From IMG/VR virus record IMGVR_UViG_3300015608_002982, positions 1 through 64,000 of that record: a stretch of DNA of 64,000 bases. One strand, 5' to 3'. The notes under the pieces were generated by a model. It was given only the letters and a program-made list of their open reading frames with translations. It did not search any database and had not been told where the DNA came from. Shown here piece by piece: positions 12,179 to 55,161 of the stretch. Both the position numbers and the translations under genes were made by a program. How positions within the stretch are numbered: the first letter of the stretch is position 1; every line of letters begins with the position of its first letter. Source of the stretch: a virus. Its lineage: Duplodnaviria > Caudoviricetes.

Positions 12179-12190
12179 GTGGGTTTTTTT
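12160..12190. terminator. Bidirectional intrinsic terminator
   Basis: AAAAAACCCACTT-TGT-AAGTGGGTTTTTTT. Confidence 0.9.
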
Positions 12191-12759
12191 TATTTATTAT
12201 AAGTTAGTTTATATATTGTCTTGTATTGTAGAGCTATCAACTCGTCAATAATGTTGTGAATGTGTGTATCTTCTGCTTTAATGCAAGTTCTATTTGATTT
12301 AACAAACTCTACAGTTTCTTTGAAGTAATCTAATCTGTCCTTTGATCTAGAATCAGCTGTGTCGATTACATCATAACCTTCAATTAAACCATATTGACCT
12401 TGATATATTTCAACTATATCATCAATGAATTCAATAACTTCATTATAGTAAGCCTCAAGAGCTAAGTGAGCCGCGTGAGAACCCATATCACCTTTAACTG
12501 TCCAGTGATAAACTTGAGCCATCTCTCTACTTTCTAATAACTTAGAAATAAATTTTGAAACATCTCCAGATGCTTCAGATTTTTCAGAAGTACCTTCGGC
12601 TTTTTCTTCTTCAGATTCATCATCTCTATTTTCTTCTGATTTAGATTGACCAGACATTAACTTAATCAATTCTTCTTTTGACATATCTTCAAAATTTTCA
12701 GGAAGATTTGCCTCATTTATTTTCTTTTTAACGGGTTTGAAATCGGAAAACTTTTTCAT
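12190..12759 (-). CDS. CTS-bearing ferritin/Dps-like protein (DUF5856-like)
   Basis: MKKFSDFK..INEA N-terminus; VYHWTVKG, AAHLALEAYY..IDDIVEIYQGQYG. Confidence 0.7.
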   Translation of the reverse strand: MKKFSDFKPVKKKINEANLPENFEDMSKEELIKLMSGQSKSEENRDDESEEEKAEGTSEKSEASGDVSKFISKLLESREMAQVYHWTVKGDMGSHAAHLALEAYYNEVIEFIDDIVEIYQGQYGLIEGYDVIDTADSRSKDRLDYFKETVEFVKSNRTCIKAEDTHIHNIIDELIALQYKTIYKLTYNK

Positions 12760-12790: not shown

Positions 12791-13189
12791 TTATTTTACC
12801 GAGTTCAAAAACTCTTCGTAATTAAATTTAATTTTTTCTTTTTTGAACTGTGATATCATATCATTAGCAATCTCCATTCTATTTTCTTTATCTTTGACTT
12901 TTTTAATTATGTCGATTATTCCTGATACCATTTGATAGTCATTTCCATCAATTTCTTTTTTAATATTTGATTTAGATTCACCCATAAAAGAATCAGAAAT
13001 TCTATCTTCTGTCTCTTCAATTAGTTGAATTGTGTAGTCATAACCATCTTCAACAGATGCTAGTGTTGAGTCTGCTATATAACCAGCTTCACCTTCGTTT
13101 TCAGCTGGTATAATTAATTCTATTTTCGCAAATACTTTGTAGTATTTTTGATTTGAATTATCTTCTAATATTTTAGTGAATTTTTTCAT
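12791..13189 (-). CDS. Hypothetical protein with CTS-like N-terminus
   Basis: MKKFTKILED. Confidence 0.55.
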   Translation of the reverse strand: MKKFTKILEDNSNQKYYKVFAKIELIIPAENEGEAGYIADSTLASVEDGYDYTIQLIEETEDRISDSFMGESKSNIKKEIDGNDYQMVSGIIDIIKKVKDKENRMEIANDMISQFKKEKIKFNYEEFLNSVK

Positions 13190-14309
13190 ATTCTACGTCA
13201 CTTTTAATTTTATTTATCTTCTTTTTAAGATATCTACCGTTTTTATTAAACTCTTTACCCCAGTAGTCAATAAATTGCTTACAACTCATTTTTTCTAAAG
13301 TTGATATAGAGATTATTGGACTGGCTTTTTGTTCTTTTAACTCATTTTTATAAACATCTACCCACATTTCTTTTAATTTATCTGCTACATCTTCTTCAGT
13401 TTCACATCCTACTAAAAGAGCATTGCCCATATCTTTCCAATTGTAATGGCTTGATATTTGATTAATCAATGATGTATAAAACATATCTGCATCGAATTTT
13501 TCCATCTCATTTGCAGTTCTCCATATTTTAAATTGACTTAGGTCTTTATCTGGATATGTATTTATGAAATAGTGAATCTCTTGAATGTTTGCGTTCATCT
13601 CATGTGACTCACTCATATAAATATATCTAATGAATTCTGTAGTCCATTTATACCATATCGCTTTTGGAAACTTCCATTTATTATTTTCTGCATAAGTTAA
13701 AGAAGTATTAAATGATCTACCATATATTGGCTTTCTATATTCACCTCTTTTAGGAGCTCTCATTGTTCTTTTATAGTGTTCGTAACAGTGGTTTAGTTCA
13801 TGATATAATGTAGAAACAATACCATCTATTAATGATTTTTTATTTTCTTCATTTTTAATATCAAACATTCTCTTATTAATATCGATACCAACACTAAGTT
13901 GAATTATTAATCCATGATCAGTAACCTTTTTAACTGGTTTTATAATTTTAGAATAGTTTTTCCAATTTTTATTTCCAAATCCAGAAGCCCAGCCACCTAT
14001 AGCAACGTGGTTTTCATAATTATCCCCATACAATGAGTGAAACTTCAAAGGTGTCATCTTTTTGAACTCTAATACTAATTCAAATCCAACTACTGGAAAT
14101 TCTTTATAAAGTTCTTTGTCTTTGATATAAGGGGTTAGATATCTATATTTTACTTCAACTGTTTCATCTAATCTTGTTTCTCTTGATTTTAAGAATTCAG
14201 TAAAAGCATAGTAGGTTTTTCTTTGTAAAATATCAACATACAATAAGCTTGCTTCAGAAGCTCCATGTCTTTCATTGATACTAAAGTCTTTAAAATTTAA
14301 AATCCCCAT
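13173..14309 (-). CDS. CTS-bearing putative zinc metallopeptidase
   Basis: MGILNFKDFSINE; HExxH (YHELNH) with downstream SESHEMNA as candidate third ligand. Confidence 0.6.
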   Translation of the reverse strand: MGILNFKDFSINERHGASEASLLYVDILQRKTYYAFTEFLKSRETRLDETVEVKYRYLTPYIKDKELYKEFPVVGFELVLEFKKMTPLKFHSLYGDNYENHVAIGGWASGFGNKNWKNYSKIIKPVKKVTDHGLIIQLSVGIDINKRMFDIKNEENKKSLIDGIVSTLYHELNHCYEHYKRTMRAPKRGEYRKPIYGRSFNTSLTYAENNKWKFPKAIWYKWTTEFIRYIYMSESHEMNANIQEIHYFINTYPDKDLSQFKIWRTANEMEKFDADMFYTSLINQISSHYNWKDMGNALLVGCETEEDVADKLKEMWVDVYKNELKEQKASPIISISTLEKMSCKQFIDYWGKEFNKNGRYLKKKINKIKSDVEYEKIH

Positions 14310-14356: not shown

Positions 14357-14785
14357 TTAGTTTAATATTTGGCTTATTTGTTTCTCTCTTAAAGACTGCA
14401 AGTCAATATCTGTCTCAACAGCCTCATAAAAACTCAACTTAACCATTTTCATGTATTTTTCAGTTTCCTCTTCATTAGCCATTGGATGTAGTCTATTTTC
14501 AAAAGAATCCCATTTATTTTTAGATTCTGGCTTACCATACTTAGTATTTAGAGACTCATTGAAATCCTCATACTCACTAACTTCTACATTTAGAGAATCT
14601 TCTAAATCGTATGAGTATTCGTGTAAAGAACACTCTTTATACTCTTTAATATTTAACTCTTTTACCTTTAGATTTGCATCTTCTTTAGAAAATACAATTA
14701 AACTTGGACTACCACCTTCAGATTCATTGTATATATTATCATCATACTCAAAACCTTTCTTCAAAATTACATACGCTTTTTCCAT
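14357..14785 (-). CDS. Hypothetical protein with C-terminal RxxxIxxIL motif
   Basis: Ends LREKQISQILN. Confidence 0.6.
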   Translation of the reverse strand: MEKAYVILKKGFEYDDNIYNESEGGSPSLIVFSKEDANLKVKELNIKEYKECSLHEYSYDLEDSLNVEVSEYEDFNESLNTKYGKPESKNKWDSFENRLHPMANEEETEKYMKMVKLSFYEAVETDIDLQSLREKQISQILN

Positions 14786-14786
14786 A

Positions 14787-15272
14787 TTATTTTATCTCTA
14801 TATTTTTCATCCATTTATTAACTTGACTTTCCGCCATTTCACAAATCTCATCTTTTGAAAATTCCATTTGTGACATTATATCAAATATCATTATTAGACA
14901 GTCTGTTGATTCTAATAGAATATTTTTTCTAATTTCTTCTTTACTCTCGTTTGTTCTTTTATAATTGACAAGTTTTAGTATTTCTGCTGATAGTTCTCCA
15001 TATTCTTCACCTAGCTTTAATCCTCTTTCTATTAGACCTGGATTTTCAAACTTTGAAGCGTTTGTTACTAAATCATAGACGTAATCTATAAGTGGCTCTA
15101 AAACAGCATGTTCTTTTATCATTTCACCTTTTCTTTCAAAGTCTTCAATGAGTACTTCTAAGATAGCTACATTGTTTGACTCTTCAGGTGTTAGTTCTTT
15201 ATGAAAAACAGACTCTAAATATTTTTGAGCCTGGTTGTAATCATAGATATTTTTAATTGGTTTTATTTTCAT
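14787..15272 (-). CDS. Fusion of HigA-like antitoxin N-terminal domain and MazG-like NTP pyrophosphohydrolase
   Basis: MKIKPIK..DYNQA..LE..F..ILEVLIEDFE (HigA N-domain pattern, no HTH), then LKLGEEYGELSAE..LLESTDCLI (MazG EExxE..ExxD). Confidence 0.7.
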   Translation of the reverse strand: MKIKPIKNIYDYNQAQKYLESVFHKELTPEESNNVAILEVLIEDFERKGEMIKEHAVLEPLIDYVYDLVTNASKFENPGLIERGLKLGEEYGELSAEILKLVNYKRTNESKEEIRKNILLESTDCLIMIFDIMSQMEFSKDEICEMAESQVNKWMKNIEIK

Positions 15273-15322
15273 TTTTAACAATTAGAAATTAATATATAAG
15301 GAGTAAAAATATAAAGTTATAT

Positions 15323-17253: not shown

Positions 17254-19206
17254 ATGAAATTATTTAAGTATAACCAATTTTTAGGTGAAAAACCACTAAA
17301 TGAGAATCTTGATAAGGCAAAAAAGTTTATGAAAGAAACATATTTGCTGAAAACTGTTGCTACTGATCTTGGATTTATTGAAGGTGAATTAAAAGCACAG
17401 TTAGACCATAAAGAAAAGAGAAGTCTTACTTTAGGTGATTTTACTCCTGAGCAACAAGAAGAAATTAAACAAAAGTTAAGAACTACTAAATTAACAGACC
17501 AAGAAGTAAGAACTATTGAAAGAGATCCTGAATTCTTAAAGATTAGAGAGTTATTAGGTAATCAATATATTGGTTGGACTTATCCATTTACTTATTTCTA
17601 TTTTGTTGAAATGGTTTCATTAGATGAATTATTTAATAGTGAGGATTCTATATTTAATAAGTTAATTGAGTATAAAGGTTTGCTAGATAAACTACCAAAA
17701 AAGTTTGACCAAAACTTTATTGATGTTAATATTCCTAATAATGCTGAGGTTTTAATAGATGGCTTAGATTCATTAGAGGATTATAGAAAGATTAAGAAAG
17801 TATTTGATAAATTAACACCTGTTTTGAAAAAAGACTATACTGATTCACCTGAAGTTATTAAACAACAATTTGCTGAAGTTTGTAGAGGATTTGATCAATT
17901 AGGTGGTGATGATGAAGCCAAGAAAGAAAAACTTTGGAAATCATTTTTTGGTGAGGTGAGAACTATTGAAGCTGACCAAGTTATTCACGGTAGAGCATAT
18001 AAGAAAGGTGACAAGAGATACTTTGGTCCTCTTAACAGATATACAAATATTAGAGAATTCATCAAAGCTGGTCAAAACTATTTGAAATCATCTGAGAATG
18101 AAACAGTATTGGCTTTCTATGATAAGATTAATAACTGTAATGATAAATATGGTGCTTTAGGTGCTGATACAGTATTTGAAGAAAATGGTATCTTAATTAT
18201 TGAAGTTAAATCATTCCAAGCTAATCAATTCTTAAATGGACATACAAGACACTGTATTAAAGATTATTCTTCTCAGTGGGAAAACTATGTGGCTTCACAC
18301 GATAACAAACAGTATTATATCTATAACTTTAATATTCCTCAATATGATAACCTTTCAACAATTGGTATTACAATTGAGCCTGGTCAAAGAATTAGAGCTT
18401 GTCACGCTAAAGATGATGCTGGTATCTCAAGTAGAATTAAAGATATTCTAAAAGGCTGGGAAAGAGAATATGGTATTAAAGATGACCTTTTTGCTGAACT
18501 TAAACCAATGACCGGTGAAGAAGTTGAAAAGAGAAGAAGAGCTAAAGTTGCTGAAAGAGAGATTGTTAAGAAAGGTCTTACAATTGAACAAATCACAAGA
18601 TATGTAAAAGAAGATGGTGCTAACATCAATAAGGATAATTGTGTTGCTCTTTTACACGCAGTTGAGGAAAATGATTTAGATAAAGCAAAAGTAATTCTTG
18701 ATTTAGGTGGTTCGCCAAACTTGAGAAGTAAAGCAGATGCTATTATTAATAAAGCAACTACACTTGATATGATTAAGTTATTAGTTGCTAATGGTTCTGA
18801 ATTAACAGGTGAAGTATTTAATAATATTTGTGATGATTTAGATGCTGTTGAGTATTGCTTAAAGCAAGGATTAGATCCAAACTTTGATAACTTCCTTCCT
18901 ATTAGAAGATGTGTTAAAGGCTCTTGGAAAACTAAAGATGATATTGGTGAAGGTTACTTTGATGTGATGAAGCTACTTGTTAAATATGGTGCTAAATTAC
19001 AATCTGAGGGTAATAGATATATGCAACTTAAATGGGCAGCAGAATATGGTCGTTTAGATTTTATTGATTACATGATTGAAAAAGGTGTTAAAACTGGTTT
19101 CAAAGCGGCTCTTTCTTGGCTAAATCACAGTAGAAAAATTCCTGATGCTAAAAAGAAAGAAGTTGTTGCTTACTTAGAAGAGAAGATTAAACAATACGGA
19201 GAATAA
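17254..19206 (+). CDS. CTS-bearing protein with C-terminal ankyrin repeats
   Basis: MKLFKYNQFLGE; ALLHAVEENDLDKAKVILDLGG, LKWAAEYGRLDFIDYMIEKG. Confidence 0.75.
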   Translation: MKLFKYNQFLGEKPLNENLDKAKKFMKETYLLKTVATDLGFIEGELKAQLDHKEKRSLTLGDFTPEQQEEIKQKLRTTKLTDQEVRTIERDPEFLKIRELLGNQYIGWTYPFTYFYFVEMVSLDELFNSEDSIFNKLIEYKGLLDKLPKKFDQNFIDVNIPNNAEVLIDGLDSLEDYRKIKKVFDKLTPVLKKDYTDSPEVIKQQFAEVCRGFDQLGGDDEAKKEKLWKSFFGEVRTIEADQVIHGRAYKKGDKRYFGPLNRYTNIREFIKAGQNYLKSSENETVLAFYDKINNCNDKYGALGADTVFEENGILIIEVKSFQANQFLNGHTRHCIKDYSSQWENYVASHDNKQYYIYNFNIPQYDNLSTIGITIEPGQRIRACHAKDDAGISSRIKDILKGWEREYGIKDDLFAELKPMTGEEVEKRRRAKVAEREIVKKGLTIEQITRYVKEDGANINKDNCVALLHAVEENDLDKAKVILDLGGSPNLRSKADAIINKATTLDMIKLLVANGSELTGEVFNNICDDLDAVEYCLKQGLDPNFDNFLPIRRCVKGSWKTKDDIGEGYFDVMKLLVKYGAKLQSEGNRYMQLKWAAEYGRLDFIDYMIEKGVKTGFKAALSWLNHSRKIPDAKKKEVVAYLEEKIKQYGE

Positions 19207-52227: not shown

Positions 52228-55161
52228 TTATAAGTCTTTTTGTTCAGATCTATATTTATCGTATCTATTTGCTATTTCAACTAAGAATTTATTTCTAACT
52301 ATATCTTCGTTTGTAAATTCATGCATATATAAATCATTCATTCCGTCTACCATCTTTATAAAGTCATTATATCCTGAGTCTCTTCTTTTAACATCATATT
52401 GTGATGTATCTCCCATCATTACTGCTTTTGAATCCTTACCTAAACGAGTTACCCATAACATAAGTTGTTTAATTGAAGCATTTTGGCAGTTATGAACCAA
52501 TATATTTTCAACAAAATAATTGTGATTACCATCAACCTCTATGTTATATACATAATCTGGTTCAGAATCTTCAATATTTACAATCTCGGTTGTTGATAAA
52601 TTTTTGTTATATGATATTCTATATAAACTATTATCAAAATTATTAGTATCACTATTCAATTTATAAGACATTGATGGGTGTATATATTTTGATATAATAT
52701 CAAACATTTTTAAAGAGTTAATTCTATTTAAACATAGTATTACACCTTTTGATGTTTTATAAATACTACTATCTAAACTGAATTTATTTTTCAATATTTT
52801 AGATAATACATTGACTTCCTCGTAACTCATGGAATTGGTTGAGAATGTTACAGACCCACTTGATTTTGAAATAGATCCATCATCCATATACCATATAGCT
52901 AAAGTTCTTTCTGTGAACCATCTACTTATCTCACTACTTATGAACTTCTTAGACCCATTATACATAGAGTTATAAAACTCATTTGATATATTTATAGATT
53001 TTGTTTGAAATCCACACTGCTCTTCACCTGTATATCCAGACTTTAAAGAATTTCTATATGATGATATTTCACCAAAAATATTTTTTTTGAAATTCATATA
53101 GTCATATTGTTTAATAGAATGATTTGTTAGTATTCTATATGACTTTTTAACTTGCTTATTTTGTAGTAATGATGAATCACCCAGACACATTCCTAAAATT
53201 ATATCATATGAGTCATTTGTAATAATTGTGGAATCATTTGTGTTATAGCCTTTATACCTACATATACTATCACCTATGTTTAAGTTGTCAACTTCAATCC
53301 ATTTAATTTCTCCATCTTTAAATATCGCAAATGGATGATTTTTTGTTGTCTTTATAGGTTTTATTCTATCCTTTGTATATATTTTAGTGATATTTTTTAT
53401 ACCATTTTCAAAAACTCCAGTTACTTTTCTATTTTCTAAAATTTTCATATCTTCATTCCAACTAGAAACATACACATCTTTACCTAATTTAAACATATTA
53501 ACGATATCTTTTATTCTAAGATAATTAAAAGATCCTCTAGTTCCATGTTTTGTAACAACCCTTGTGTCACCCGTGAAACACTCATCTAACAACATTATGC
53601 AATTGTCATAAGTTGATCCTCTCATGTAAGCTAAAGGTTCAAAACAAATTTCTTCAGTAGCAAACAAAAAGTCAATTGTTGGTTTTCCCAAAATTTTACA
53701 AAATGTTGTGTAATATGATTGTTTGTATGGATCTATTTTTTCTGCAATGTTACCAGGAAGTGCTCCTAAGTTTTCACCACTTTCCTGAATTGGCTTAGTG
53801 ATAATGATTTTTTCTATTTTTTTATCAGCTAATAATGCTAGAGCTGTGTAACAGGTTGTATATGTATTGTGTGTTACAATATAATCATTTGTCAAATAGA
53901 GATGAGATGGATTATCCACACTAATACACTGAGCTTTCTTTTTACCAATTAGTTTAGCAGATACTATATATCTAGTTGGTTTATATTTTGACTTTGGTTT
54001 TACTAATTTAAATTTTCTATTTAATGAAAATGGATTTATTTCCGAATTCATTTTTATAGTTATTTTATATGACGTTTTTCCATATATTTTTTCACCAGAT
54101 TTAATATAGTAACTATCTGATGGAGTGTGATCTGTTGCAACTCCACCTAGTGATTGAACCAACTCTTTAACATCATTGATTAATCTTTTGGATGTTGATG
54201 AGAAGCTTACAAAGGTACCATCTTTAGATACAGATCCGTCCGAATCCATCAGTCCTCTTAATATAGATATTCTATTTTCTATAGAATTGAATTTATAACA
54301 ATCCGGGATAAATTTTTCTTGTGAGAGTTTATTCCAAAGTCCTATTTTAGTTAAATATTGTTTAATTTTGTTTTCTCTTACTTCGGGTTCTTTTACCAAT
54401 GAGTAGTCATAACAACCTCTATAAATTACAGAAATTTCTTCATCAATTAAATTTTCAATACGTTCTACTATCTCTAAATCAGATGTCGTGAAATTAACAC
54501 TTCCTCTAAAACATCCATCTCCAATTAGGAATCCCATAATATATGGATCTATGTCTACTTTTATTTCGTTAAATTGAACAGGCTTTGTAATAGGAATTGT
54601 GTGGTTTATCCTACCTCTTTTAGTATAGAGTGTTTCTATAATTTCCGAAGTTGATTTAACACTTCCTTCCTTTTCATCTTTATGTCTACTTCTTTTACCA
54701 TTTATGGTTTTAGTCCATTTCCTATTATTTCTATCACTTTCGGTTTGAGTAAACCATAAATGGTCACCACAGCACTCTACTTTAGAACTATCAGAAAAAG
54801 TTAGCTCCCAAATATCTTTTTCACCTTGTGGATAAACTCCCGTGACAATTGTTGGTAAGCCATCAACAGAGATAACTCTATCACCTATTTGTATTTCACC
54901 CATCTTAACCCAACCATTTGGTGTTAAAATTGGTGAATCTAATGGTTGGGCTTTGCTTGTCCCGGCTGGCCCATGAACTACTGACAAAATATTGTTTCTT
55001 ATTCCTTTGTATAAGAGTTGTTGTTTATCAGATAAATGTACATTTGATTTTTGAAATTCCTCTTTAGTTAAAGAGTTCTTTTTTCTAAGATTCTTTTTGT
55101 ATTCAAATTCTTGAATTCCGTCCTGAATCTGACCGTTAAGTTCGCTTTTGTACTTGCTCAT
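52228..55161 (-). CDS. phoH: PhoH-family ATPase containing two inteins (about 251 aa after splicing)
   Basis: GPAGTSK/T Walker A, EPLAYMRGSTYDN, LLDE/CQN, TRLG, GDTSQYD, DIVRN. Confidence 0.9.
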   Translation of the reverse strand: MSKYKSELNGQIQDGIQEFEYKKNLRKKNSLTKEEFQKSNVHLSDKQQLLYKGIRNNILSVVHGPAGTSKAQPLDSPILTPNGWVKMGEIQIGDRVISVDGLPTIVTGVYPQGEKDIWELTFSDSSKVECCGDHLWFTQTESDRNNRKWTKTINGKRSRHKDEKEGSVKSTSEIIETLYTKRGRINHTIPITKPVQFNEIKVDIDPYIMGFLIGDGCFRGSVNFTTSDLEIVERIENLIDEEISVIYRGCYDYSLVKEPEVRENKIKQYLTKIGLWNKLSQEKFIPDCYKFNSIENRISILRGLMDSDGSVSKDGTFVSFSSTSKRLINDVKELVQSLGGVATDHTPSDSYYIKSGEKIYGKTSYKITIKMNSEINPFSLNRKFKLVKPKSKYKPTRYIVSAKLIGKKKAQCISVDNPSHLYLTNDYIVTHNTYTTCYTALALLADKKIEKIIITKPIQESGENLGALPGNIAEKIDPYKQSYYTTFCKILGKPTIDFLFATEEICFEPLAYMRGSTYDNCIMLLDECFTGDTRVVTKHGTRGSFNYLRIKDIVNMFKLGKDVYVSSWNEDMKILENRKVTGVFENGIKNITKIYTKDRIKPIKTTKNHPFAIFKDGEIKWIEVDNLNIGDSICRYKGYNTNDSTIITNDSYDIILGMCLGDSSLLQNKQVKKSYRILTNHSIKQYDYMNFKKNIFGEISSYRNSLKSGYTGEEQCGFQTKSINISNEFYNSMYNGSKKFISSEISRWFTERTLAIWYMDDGSISKSSGSVTFSTNSMSYEEVNVLSKILKNKFSLDSSIYKTSKGVILCLNRINSLKMFDIISKYIHPSMSYKLNSDTNNFDNSLYRISYNKNLSTTEIVNIEDSEPDYVYNIEVDGNHNYFVENILVHNCQNASIKQLMLWVTRLGKDSKAVMMGDTSQYDVKRRDSGYNDFIKMVDGMNDLYMHEFTNEDIVRNKFLVEIANRYDKYRSEQKDL
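52489..53580 (-). mobile_element. Class 1 (Cys1) intein with LAGLIDADG endonuclease, 364 aa
   Basis: Starts CFTGDT, TKNHPF, VYNIEV, ends LVHN/C; LGMCLGDS, IWYMDDG. Confidence 0.88.
53866..54951 (-). mobile_element. Class 3 (Ala1, WCT) intein with LAGLIDADG endonuclease, 362 aa
   Basis: Starts AQPL, block B DHLW, block F AQCISV, ends VTHN/T; MGFLIGDG, LRGLMDSDG. Confidence 0.85.

Follow-up and report, generated by a model that had tools for sequence, protein, structure and literature searches.

What kind of protein results when the start of an antitoxin is joined to a nucleotide-hydrolyzing enzyme, and what might it do for the phage that carries it? The question is raised by a gene in a 64-kb window (the whole stretch of DNA analyzed here) of an 89-kb IMG/VR virus record with a G+C content of ~29%. 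The open reading frame list and its translation place the gene at 14787-15272 on the minus strand, with the ATG at 15272 and the stop codon at 14787-14789, and its product is a protein of 161 amino acids in which a hairpin of the type found at the N-terminus of HigA is fused to MazG. An initial annotation had read the protein in this way, and had proposed that it is an antitoxin mimic directed against abortive infection based on toxin-antitoxin (TA) modules, linked to an eraser of a nucleotide signal. The anatomy proposed there is correct, with stronger support than that annotation could draw on, and the proposed function would be a reasonable reading, so that the interpretation as a whole is partly supported; the fusion may disarm host toxin-antitoxin defense.

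In the AlphaFold model (pLDDT 84.8) the N-terminal part of the protein (residues 1-50; 15123-15272, minus strand) begins with an extended segment of sequence MKIKPIK, residues 1-8 being extended, and continues with two helices comprising residues 9-22 and 29-47. This is the predicted HigA-type N-terminal hairpin. It is followed by a linker (residues 51-60; 15093-15122, minus strand) that is variable in the alignment and of low confidence in the model, with residues 51-58 disordered at pLDDT below 50. The remainder (residues 61-161; 14790-15092, minus strand) is a putative single-domain MazG-like NTP pyrophosphohydrolase, all alpha and made of four helices. The hairpin sits on the disordered linker and is not packed on the enzyme (model pTM 0.56). 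The linker includes Met51, from which the initial annotation had suggested that a separate product might be made. This methionine is present in 2 of 24 sequences. It is therefore not conserved, a separate internal product is not a feature of the family, and we rejected Met51 as a second start.

The kinship of the hairpin with HigA emerged from profile-profile comparison, from the PHROG families and from a more HigA-like member of the family, P0125. A single BLASTP comparison matches the protein, from Met1 through residue 48, to residues 1-50 of a HigB-linked 119-aa plasmid protein named 'transcriptional regulator', with 41% identity and E 4e-6. The hairpin profile and the same plasmid protein are aligned by hhalign over 53 columns at 97.8% (P 9e-13). 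Against the family of E. coli K-12 HigA the value is 86.8% (P 4e-6), and 92.6% (P 5e-7) after adding the plasmid HigAs to that family; the part of E. coli HigA aligned to the phage hairpin is residues 24-65. Ten of 11 family hairpins match phrog_10398, with a best E of 2e-16, and for nine of 11 the top PHROG match is to the first 58 positions of phrog_1373. E. coli HigA likewise finds its best PHROG in phrog_1373, with the match starting at HigA residue 24.

The hairpin of P0125 is 46% identical to that of the 161-aa protein, and P0125 retains the HigA junction KNYPIE. A tblastn search with this hairpin matched 372 plasmid records (best E 4e-11), with 46-50% identity over all 54 residues, and also a phage D6 gene whose annotation is 'HigA family antitoxin'. 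The three matched regions that we inspected encode proteins of 119-121 aa annotated as HigA antitoxin or 'transcriptional regulator'. In the two plasmid regions a gap of 5 nt separates an annotated HigB toxin gene from the HigA-like gene that follows it, and in phage D6 the gene sits in a RelE-toxin/HigA cluster. Identity of the hairpin to genuine HigA N-termini is 33-50%, and the non-helical KPI(K/R) segment at the N-terminus is conserved in HigA and the phage family alike. In two Klebsiella plasmids (L022 and L023) the gene for an E. coli-type HigA comes after a RelE/ParE toxin gene and a small HTH gene, an arrangement of three genes and not a plain higBA pair. The ESM Atlas contains only short bacterial look-alikes of the hairpin, one cluster being named 'transcriptional regulator', and we treat these as a lead only.

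Might the resemblance be due to chance, or to convergence between helical hairpins? The segment is short (~50 aa) and helical, and searches with the single sequence and with HMMER profiles against Pfam, NCBIfam, PDB sequences and the E. coli K-12 chromosome gave nothing useful, both of which would suit such an explanation. Against it, the alignment is in register from Met1 at the identity given above, and the P value from hhalign and the E value from tblastn with P0125 are both very small. The hhalign score for the real pair is 34.2, compared with 8-10 for reversed sequences and a maximum of 17.8 in 200 column shuffles, so that both controls lie far below the real score. A single family, phrog_1373, is moreover common to the phage hairpins and E. 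coli HigA. We consider a fortuitous resemblance scarcely credible. The comparisons indicate that the phage hairpin is homologous to the N-terminus of the short HigA antitoxins that are partnered by HigB. The initial annotation had seen the HigA pattern in the first ~48 residues, as the alignment bears out, and had regarded a HigA profile match as indispensable to its reading; such a match is present in the hhalign comparison.

The similarity to HigA stops near residue 50. Beyond this point the HigAs run into their HTH, whereas the phage proteins run into the linker and MazG. No HTH family was found in the 161-aa protein among Pfam and NCBIfam matches at E<=10, and the absence of the HTH noted in the initial annotation is thus confirmed. 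Nor does a higB-like gene lie beside the fusion gene, where the neighbors are unrelated. The HigB family PF09907 gave no convincing match in the record itself or in four relatives of 385-642 kb, two of which are 95-97% complete. Its sole match is sub-threshold, in LR756502 and far from the fusion gene, with E 0.0115, 15.5 bits against a cut-off of 27 bits, and an internal stop. PF09907 gave no match in a Bacteroides thetaiotaomicron control either. The ParE/RelE family PF05016 had no match in the record or the four relatives. There is no second copy of the hairpin in the record or in near-complete relatives, giving one per genome, and phrog_10398 is matched uniquely in each huge-phage genome searched. 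Since it lacks an Xre-type HTH and an adjacent higB, and MazG replaces the DNA-binding half, the fusion could not be an autoregulating antitoxin. Judged by its sequence, the protein is an orphan antitoxin fragment carried on an enzyme, and not a HigA.

The enzyme part has many relatives of its own. A scan of 1.8 billion representative proteins found more than 100 stand-alone proteins of ~100 aa matching residues 62-160, and in an alignment of 55 of these stand-alone relatives K86, E89, E90, G92, E93, E121 and D124 are invariant. These residues constitute the EExxE...ExxD metal site of MazG-type enzymes. The first predicted metal-binding motif, K86-L-G-E89-E90-Y-G92-E93 (14994-15017, minus strand), aligns with LTEEMGEL of 5IE9 and 2GTA, and the second, E121-S-T-D124 (14901-14912, minus strand), aligns with EExxD of the same two proteins. 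Searched against the PDB, the family profile matches 5IE9 (Bacillus MazG; E 4e-9) and 2GTA (YpjD; E 9e-9) with the motifs in register, and also the integron iMazG (E 3e-6). AlphaFold places the four helices at residues 61-73, 80-101, 111-135 and 140-156, with pLDDT 82-98. Residues 56-153 of the model superpose on YpjD (2GTA) with Z 9.8 and an rmsd of 2.7 Å over 95 of 98 residues using VIA-align, and the best 32 structural matches from VIA-align all belong to the MazG-like NTP-PPase superfamily. Foldseek with the whole model returned no match at E<=0.001, and the MazG fold was ranked by VIA-align instead.

Taken alone, the 161-aa protein (P0001) falls below the Pfam and NCBIfam thresholds, and its PHROG MazG matches are weak (E 0.03-0.7). 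Between six and nine of the 55 relatives reach each of PF03819, PF12643, PF01503 or PF08761 (MazG, MazG-like, PRA-PH and dUTPase_2), with E from 5e-4 to 2e-5. The predicted membership of residues 61-161 in the MazG-like superfamily is well supported by the invariant metal site, the profile matches and the YpjD-like predicted fold. This is the MazG-like domain that the initial annotation had placed after the hairpin, with its EExxE and ExxD motifs intact.

The fusion gene is the first of a leftward run, in which it is followed by genes for a 142-aa protein, a 378-aa HExxH protein, a 132-aa protein and a DUF5856 protein. Diverging from it are rightward genes for 66-aa, 571-aa and 650-aa ankyrin-repeat proteins, and the two sets are separated by an A+T-rich intergenic region of 50 bp (15273-15322, no strand assigned), in which a scan for sigma-70 promoters and terminators was uninformative. 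Wherever a relative has enough flanking sequence, the 571-aa orthologue is again divergent from the fusion gene. The 142-aa protein is acidic, and its gene (14357-14785, minus strand) starts 1 nt past the stop of the fusion gene. The tblastn synteny places it beside the gene in L002-L005, L011, L013-L015, L017 and L053, and it was not found at the locus by tblastn in L006, L007 and L012; it is thus a frequent but not an obligatory neighbor. The 142-aa protein, modeled by AlphaFold at pLDDT 77, has no Pfam, PHROG or PDB fold match. We considered this gene as a hidden toxin partner and rejected it, given that it matches no RelE-like or other fold and is missing in some relatives.

Other genes of the window deserve mention in their own right. 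The 378-aa protein (13173-14309, minus strand) contains an HELNH motif and is possibly a metalloprotease; it had no Pfam or PHROG match, and its gene is syntenic in several relatives including LR756502. The DUF5856 protein (12190-12759, minus strand) looks like a Dps/ferritin-type protein and has a second match, to phrog_858, 'starvation-inducible transcriptional regulator'; across the clade its gene stays beside the fusion gene. The 650-aa protein (17254-19206, plus strand) has its ankyrin repeats at the C-terminal end, and in most relatives with enough flank its gene adjoins that of the 571-aa protein, at 33-88% identity. More distantly, a 977-aa PhoH-like protein (52228-55161, minus strand) is split by intein splicing and LAGLIDADG homing-endonuclease domains.

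How widespread is the fusion, and are both of its parts kept? A 90%-clustered collection contains 167 homologues (E<=0.01), nearly all of 160-161 aa, and the contigs that carry some of them measure 254-630 kb. Huge phages of the Mahaphage type account for more than 160 protein clusters with the fusion, and orthologues with the same neighbors are found on viral contigs of 134-476 kb and in LR756502.1. The largest phage genomes described by Al-Shayeb et al. fall in the 'Mahaphage' clade, for which Bacteroidetes hosts are predicted (PMC7162821). Searching with the hairpin profile for longer proteins gave 238 matches; all 120 of those listed belong to the fusion family, and among these 120 of the 238 none has the hairpin fused to another partner. 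A scan of GTDB genomes found no fusion in cellular genomes, and only MazG-domain matches in MAGs. For the hairpin we obtain a dN/dS of 0.05-0.23 and for MazG one of 0.05-0.18, synonymous sites being close to saturation, and both parts are under purifying selection. Together the sequence comparisons indicate that the fusion is real and conserved.

The hairpin and the enzyme have not always traveled together. Complete MazG-only genes (P0128, P0129 and P0134) are found in sister lineages at the same locus, either divergent from the 571-aa orthologue or within the same NAD-salvage block. Their MazG part is 51-64% identical, and there is no hairpin-coding sequence upstream of any of the three. The existence of MazG-only orthologues at the same locus leads us to conclude that the enzyme does not need the hairpin, which is a dispensable add-on. 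In a tree of the MazG module, which is short and only partly resolved, fused and MazG-only proteins interleave such that about six changes are needed. On account of this interleaving we rejected the idea that the fusion arose only once on the MazG tree. Taken with the hairpin-less locus, the interleaving implies several losses or gains of the hairpin, through which the enzyme was kept.

A distant fused orthologue, 41% identical, is found in L013:1-6388, and a MazG-only sister in L053:1-5369, which is from a contig of 711.8 kb. Both loci contain genes for CTP_transf_like, isochorismatase and NAD synthase, then the gene in question, a 142-aa-like gene, NUDIX, PspC and SmpB, and L013 has NAPRTase and Macro upstream. 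An NMNAT-like gene and a nicotinamidase-like gene also belong to this NAD-salvage block, which resembles the NAD-reconstitution loci that phages use in counter-defense and may be an island of that kind. The neighbors of the fusion gene in the window are, by comparison, uninformative. At a further locus (L052:1554-2038) the hairpin is encoded apart from the enzyme, in a 68-aa ORF whose reading frame differs from that of the 99-aa MazG ORF it overlaps, and the MazG ORF has an ATG of its own; either the fusion is naturally split here or the Logan assembly contains a frameshift.

We turn now to what the fusion might do. The reading that we favor, to which we assign a probability of a little under two in five, is that of an accessory counter-defense add-on, in which the hairpin would neutralize a host HigB-type toxin and MazG would remove a nucleotide on the same axis. 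The HigA hairpin has been captured without its DNA-binding HTH and is joined to MazG by a flexible linker. When the labile antitoxin of the host drops in infection, the hairpin would act as an orphan piece of antitoxin and bind a HigB/RelE-fold mRNA-cleaving toxin. The MazG module would hydrolyze a nucleotide, such as a (p)ppGpp-like alarmone or a (d)NTP, that drives or accompanies activation of the toxin, and the two parts would in this way both act on one abortive-infection axis.

HigB is a ribosome-dependent toxin that cleaves mRNA, and the HigBAC system gives immunity to phage (PMC11980606; 10.1101/2024.02.24.581848). In HigAs of the E. coli type the N-terminal part is involved in interaction with the toxin as well as in homo- and heterodimerization (PMC7160566). 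The conserved KPI(K/R) segment would fit contact with a partner better than packing of a core. The orphan state of the hairpin, the constraint on both parts, the accessory character of the hairpin and the NAD-salvage block around a distant orthologue likewise speak for this reading. A HigB of Bacteroidota as the target would derive only from the host predicted for related huge phages (PMC7162821).

Several observations count against counter-defense. The hairpin is well conserved across many phages, while a type II antitoxin usually recognizes only the toxin of its own pair, which speaks against a decoy for HigB. The locus in the window is a conserved block beside large uncharacterized proteins, with no obvious anti-defense island, and this too argues against the reading, as does the failure of P0001 to reach the Pfam thresholds for MazG. 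Related small MazG enzymes act mostly on (d)NTPs and not on alarmones, which weighs against the erasure of an alarmone. That one protein would be a two-in-one anti-TA effector, capturing a RelE-family (HigB) toxin and also erasing the nucleotide signal that releases the toxin, is doubtful.

The main rival to a role in counter-defense is that the hairpin is a handle for self-association or regulation. The protein would then be an enzyme of the nucleotide pool that clears non-canonical or unwanted (d)NTPs, and the hairpin would alter only its oligomeric state, stability or regulation, with no host toxin involved. Mutation of Y32, L42, L52 and I60 in the HigA homologue SehB impairs homodimerization and does not impair toxin binding (PMC7160566). 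By an approximate mapping, some of these residues fall at conserved positions that are shared with the phage hairpin (Y12, and more roughly others such as I42), so that the conservation of the hairpin may reflect folding or dimerization only. Small MazGs work as dimers or tetramers, and three of them (2GTA, 5IE9 and 2Q73) are the top structural matches. The gene belongs to a conserved core block and not to a variable island, and jumbo phages commonly carry small MazG genes that stand alone. Against such a role are the MazG-only orthologues at the same locus, from which it appears that the enzyme folds and persists without the hairpin, and a model in which the predicted hairpin lies unpacked from the enzyme on its disordered linker. 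The extended and conserved KPIK segment would also be difficult to account for by packing of the hairpin alone. On balance we hold self-association or regulation as the sole role of the hairpin to be only somewhat less likely than counter-defense.

Two further possibilities retain a binding partner for the hairpin and change its identity or its consequence. The hairpin might heterodimerize with the N-domain of a host HigA, so recruiting MazG or upsetting the autoregulation of higBA, or it might dock on some other hairpin-bearing protein. The dimerizing role of this region in E. coli-type HigA (PMC7160566) and the level of identity to real HigA N-termini would allow this, but the single hairpin gene in the record and in near-complete relatives makes such a partner from the phage itself unlikely, and a host antitoxin disturbed in this manner would tend to free its toxin, with no obvious gain for the phage. 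We consider it improbable. Alternatively, a RelE-fold or ribosome-bound toxin held on the hairpin might switch MazG or localize it, so that the protein would sense toxin release. According to the summary in PMC10135005, which cites Jadhav et al. 2020, E. coli HigA shows a large change in conformation when it binds HigB, and in the phage protein a flexible linker joins two modules that are both under purifying selection. Yet gating by a toxin is no more than speculation; the two domains are predicted to make no allosteric contact, and the MazG-only orthologues exist. We consider it improbable as well.

Bacteria abound in TA modules of the RelE/HigB type, and little has been learned of the ways in which phages deal with RNase toxins of type II. 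The conserved hairpin-MazG protein offers a concrete and cheap test case of whether a stolen antitoxin fragment can neutralize HigB and the enzyme remove (p)ppGpp or another nucleotide. If the counter-defense reading is true, a piece of an antitoxin would here for the first time be seen reused on an enzyme, as a module for targeting or neutralization. It would link orphan antitoxins and alarmone-erasing MazG in one polypeptide, and would define the minimal toxin-binding unit of this class of HigA. If it is not true, the protein would still be a clear example of huge phages capturing a domain from a TA module of the host.

We found no description of a HigA-MazG fusion in the literature that we searched, and each half can be compared with known proteins. 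The short HigAs, exemplified by the 119-aa WP_241424551.1 that follows HigB on a Citrobacter cronae plasmid, by orf72 of Escherichia phage D6 and, more distantly, by E. coli K-12 HigA (b3082), share with the phage protein their first ~50 residues (M-x-IKPIK, DY..A, LE..F and L..LI..[FYW]E.K), starting at Met1. They differ in having an Xre-type HTH and an adjacent higB, where the phage protein has MazG instead. A hairpin-sized phage family of 66 positions and unknown function, phrog_10398, matches the hairpin. B. subtilis YpjD (2GTA), the Bacillus-conserved MazG 5IE9 and integron iMazG (2Q73 and 2Q5Z) have in common with the phage module the four-helix fold, a length of ~100 aa and the EExxE...ExxD site, with profile E values of 4e-9 to 5e-6 and Z of 8.1-9.8. 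Unlike the phage module these enzymes stand alone, and they have ~15-20% identity to it.

A precedent for the proposed activity is Atd1, a MazG-like pyrophosphatase of Pectobacterium phage PcCB7V, which is reported to deplete (p)ppGpp and thereby to keep TA toxins (MazF) silent in TIR-driven abortive infection (bioRxiv 10.1101/2022.06.09.495361). It is likewise a phage-encoded single-domain MazG-like enzyme, and lies on the axis to which the hairpin points. It differs in being described as a MazG catalytic domain only, with no antitoxin-derived part mentioned (10.1101/2022.06.09.495361). Atd1 was absent among the tblastn matches in the phage collection. A dual anti-defense role for the fusion would be plausible, helped by the precedents of Atd1 and HigBAC.

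Phages are also armed against TA toxins by other proteins. The Dmd protein of phage T4 acts against RnlA/LsoA. Orphan antitoxin-like counter-defense is provided by DarG-like enzymes directed against DarTG (PMC11257639; 10.1101/2023.12.14.571748). In these, as in the fusion, the phage carries an antitoxin-derived or antitoxin-mimicking part without a cognate toxin. The DarG-like proteins and Dmd are however whole antitoxins or unrelated mimics, whereas here only the hairpin of HigA is present, joined to an unrelated enzyme. The HigA-MazG fusion thus combines two known kinds of component, an orphan antitoxin module and a phage MazG.
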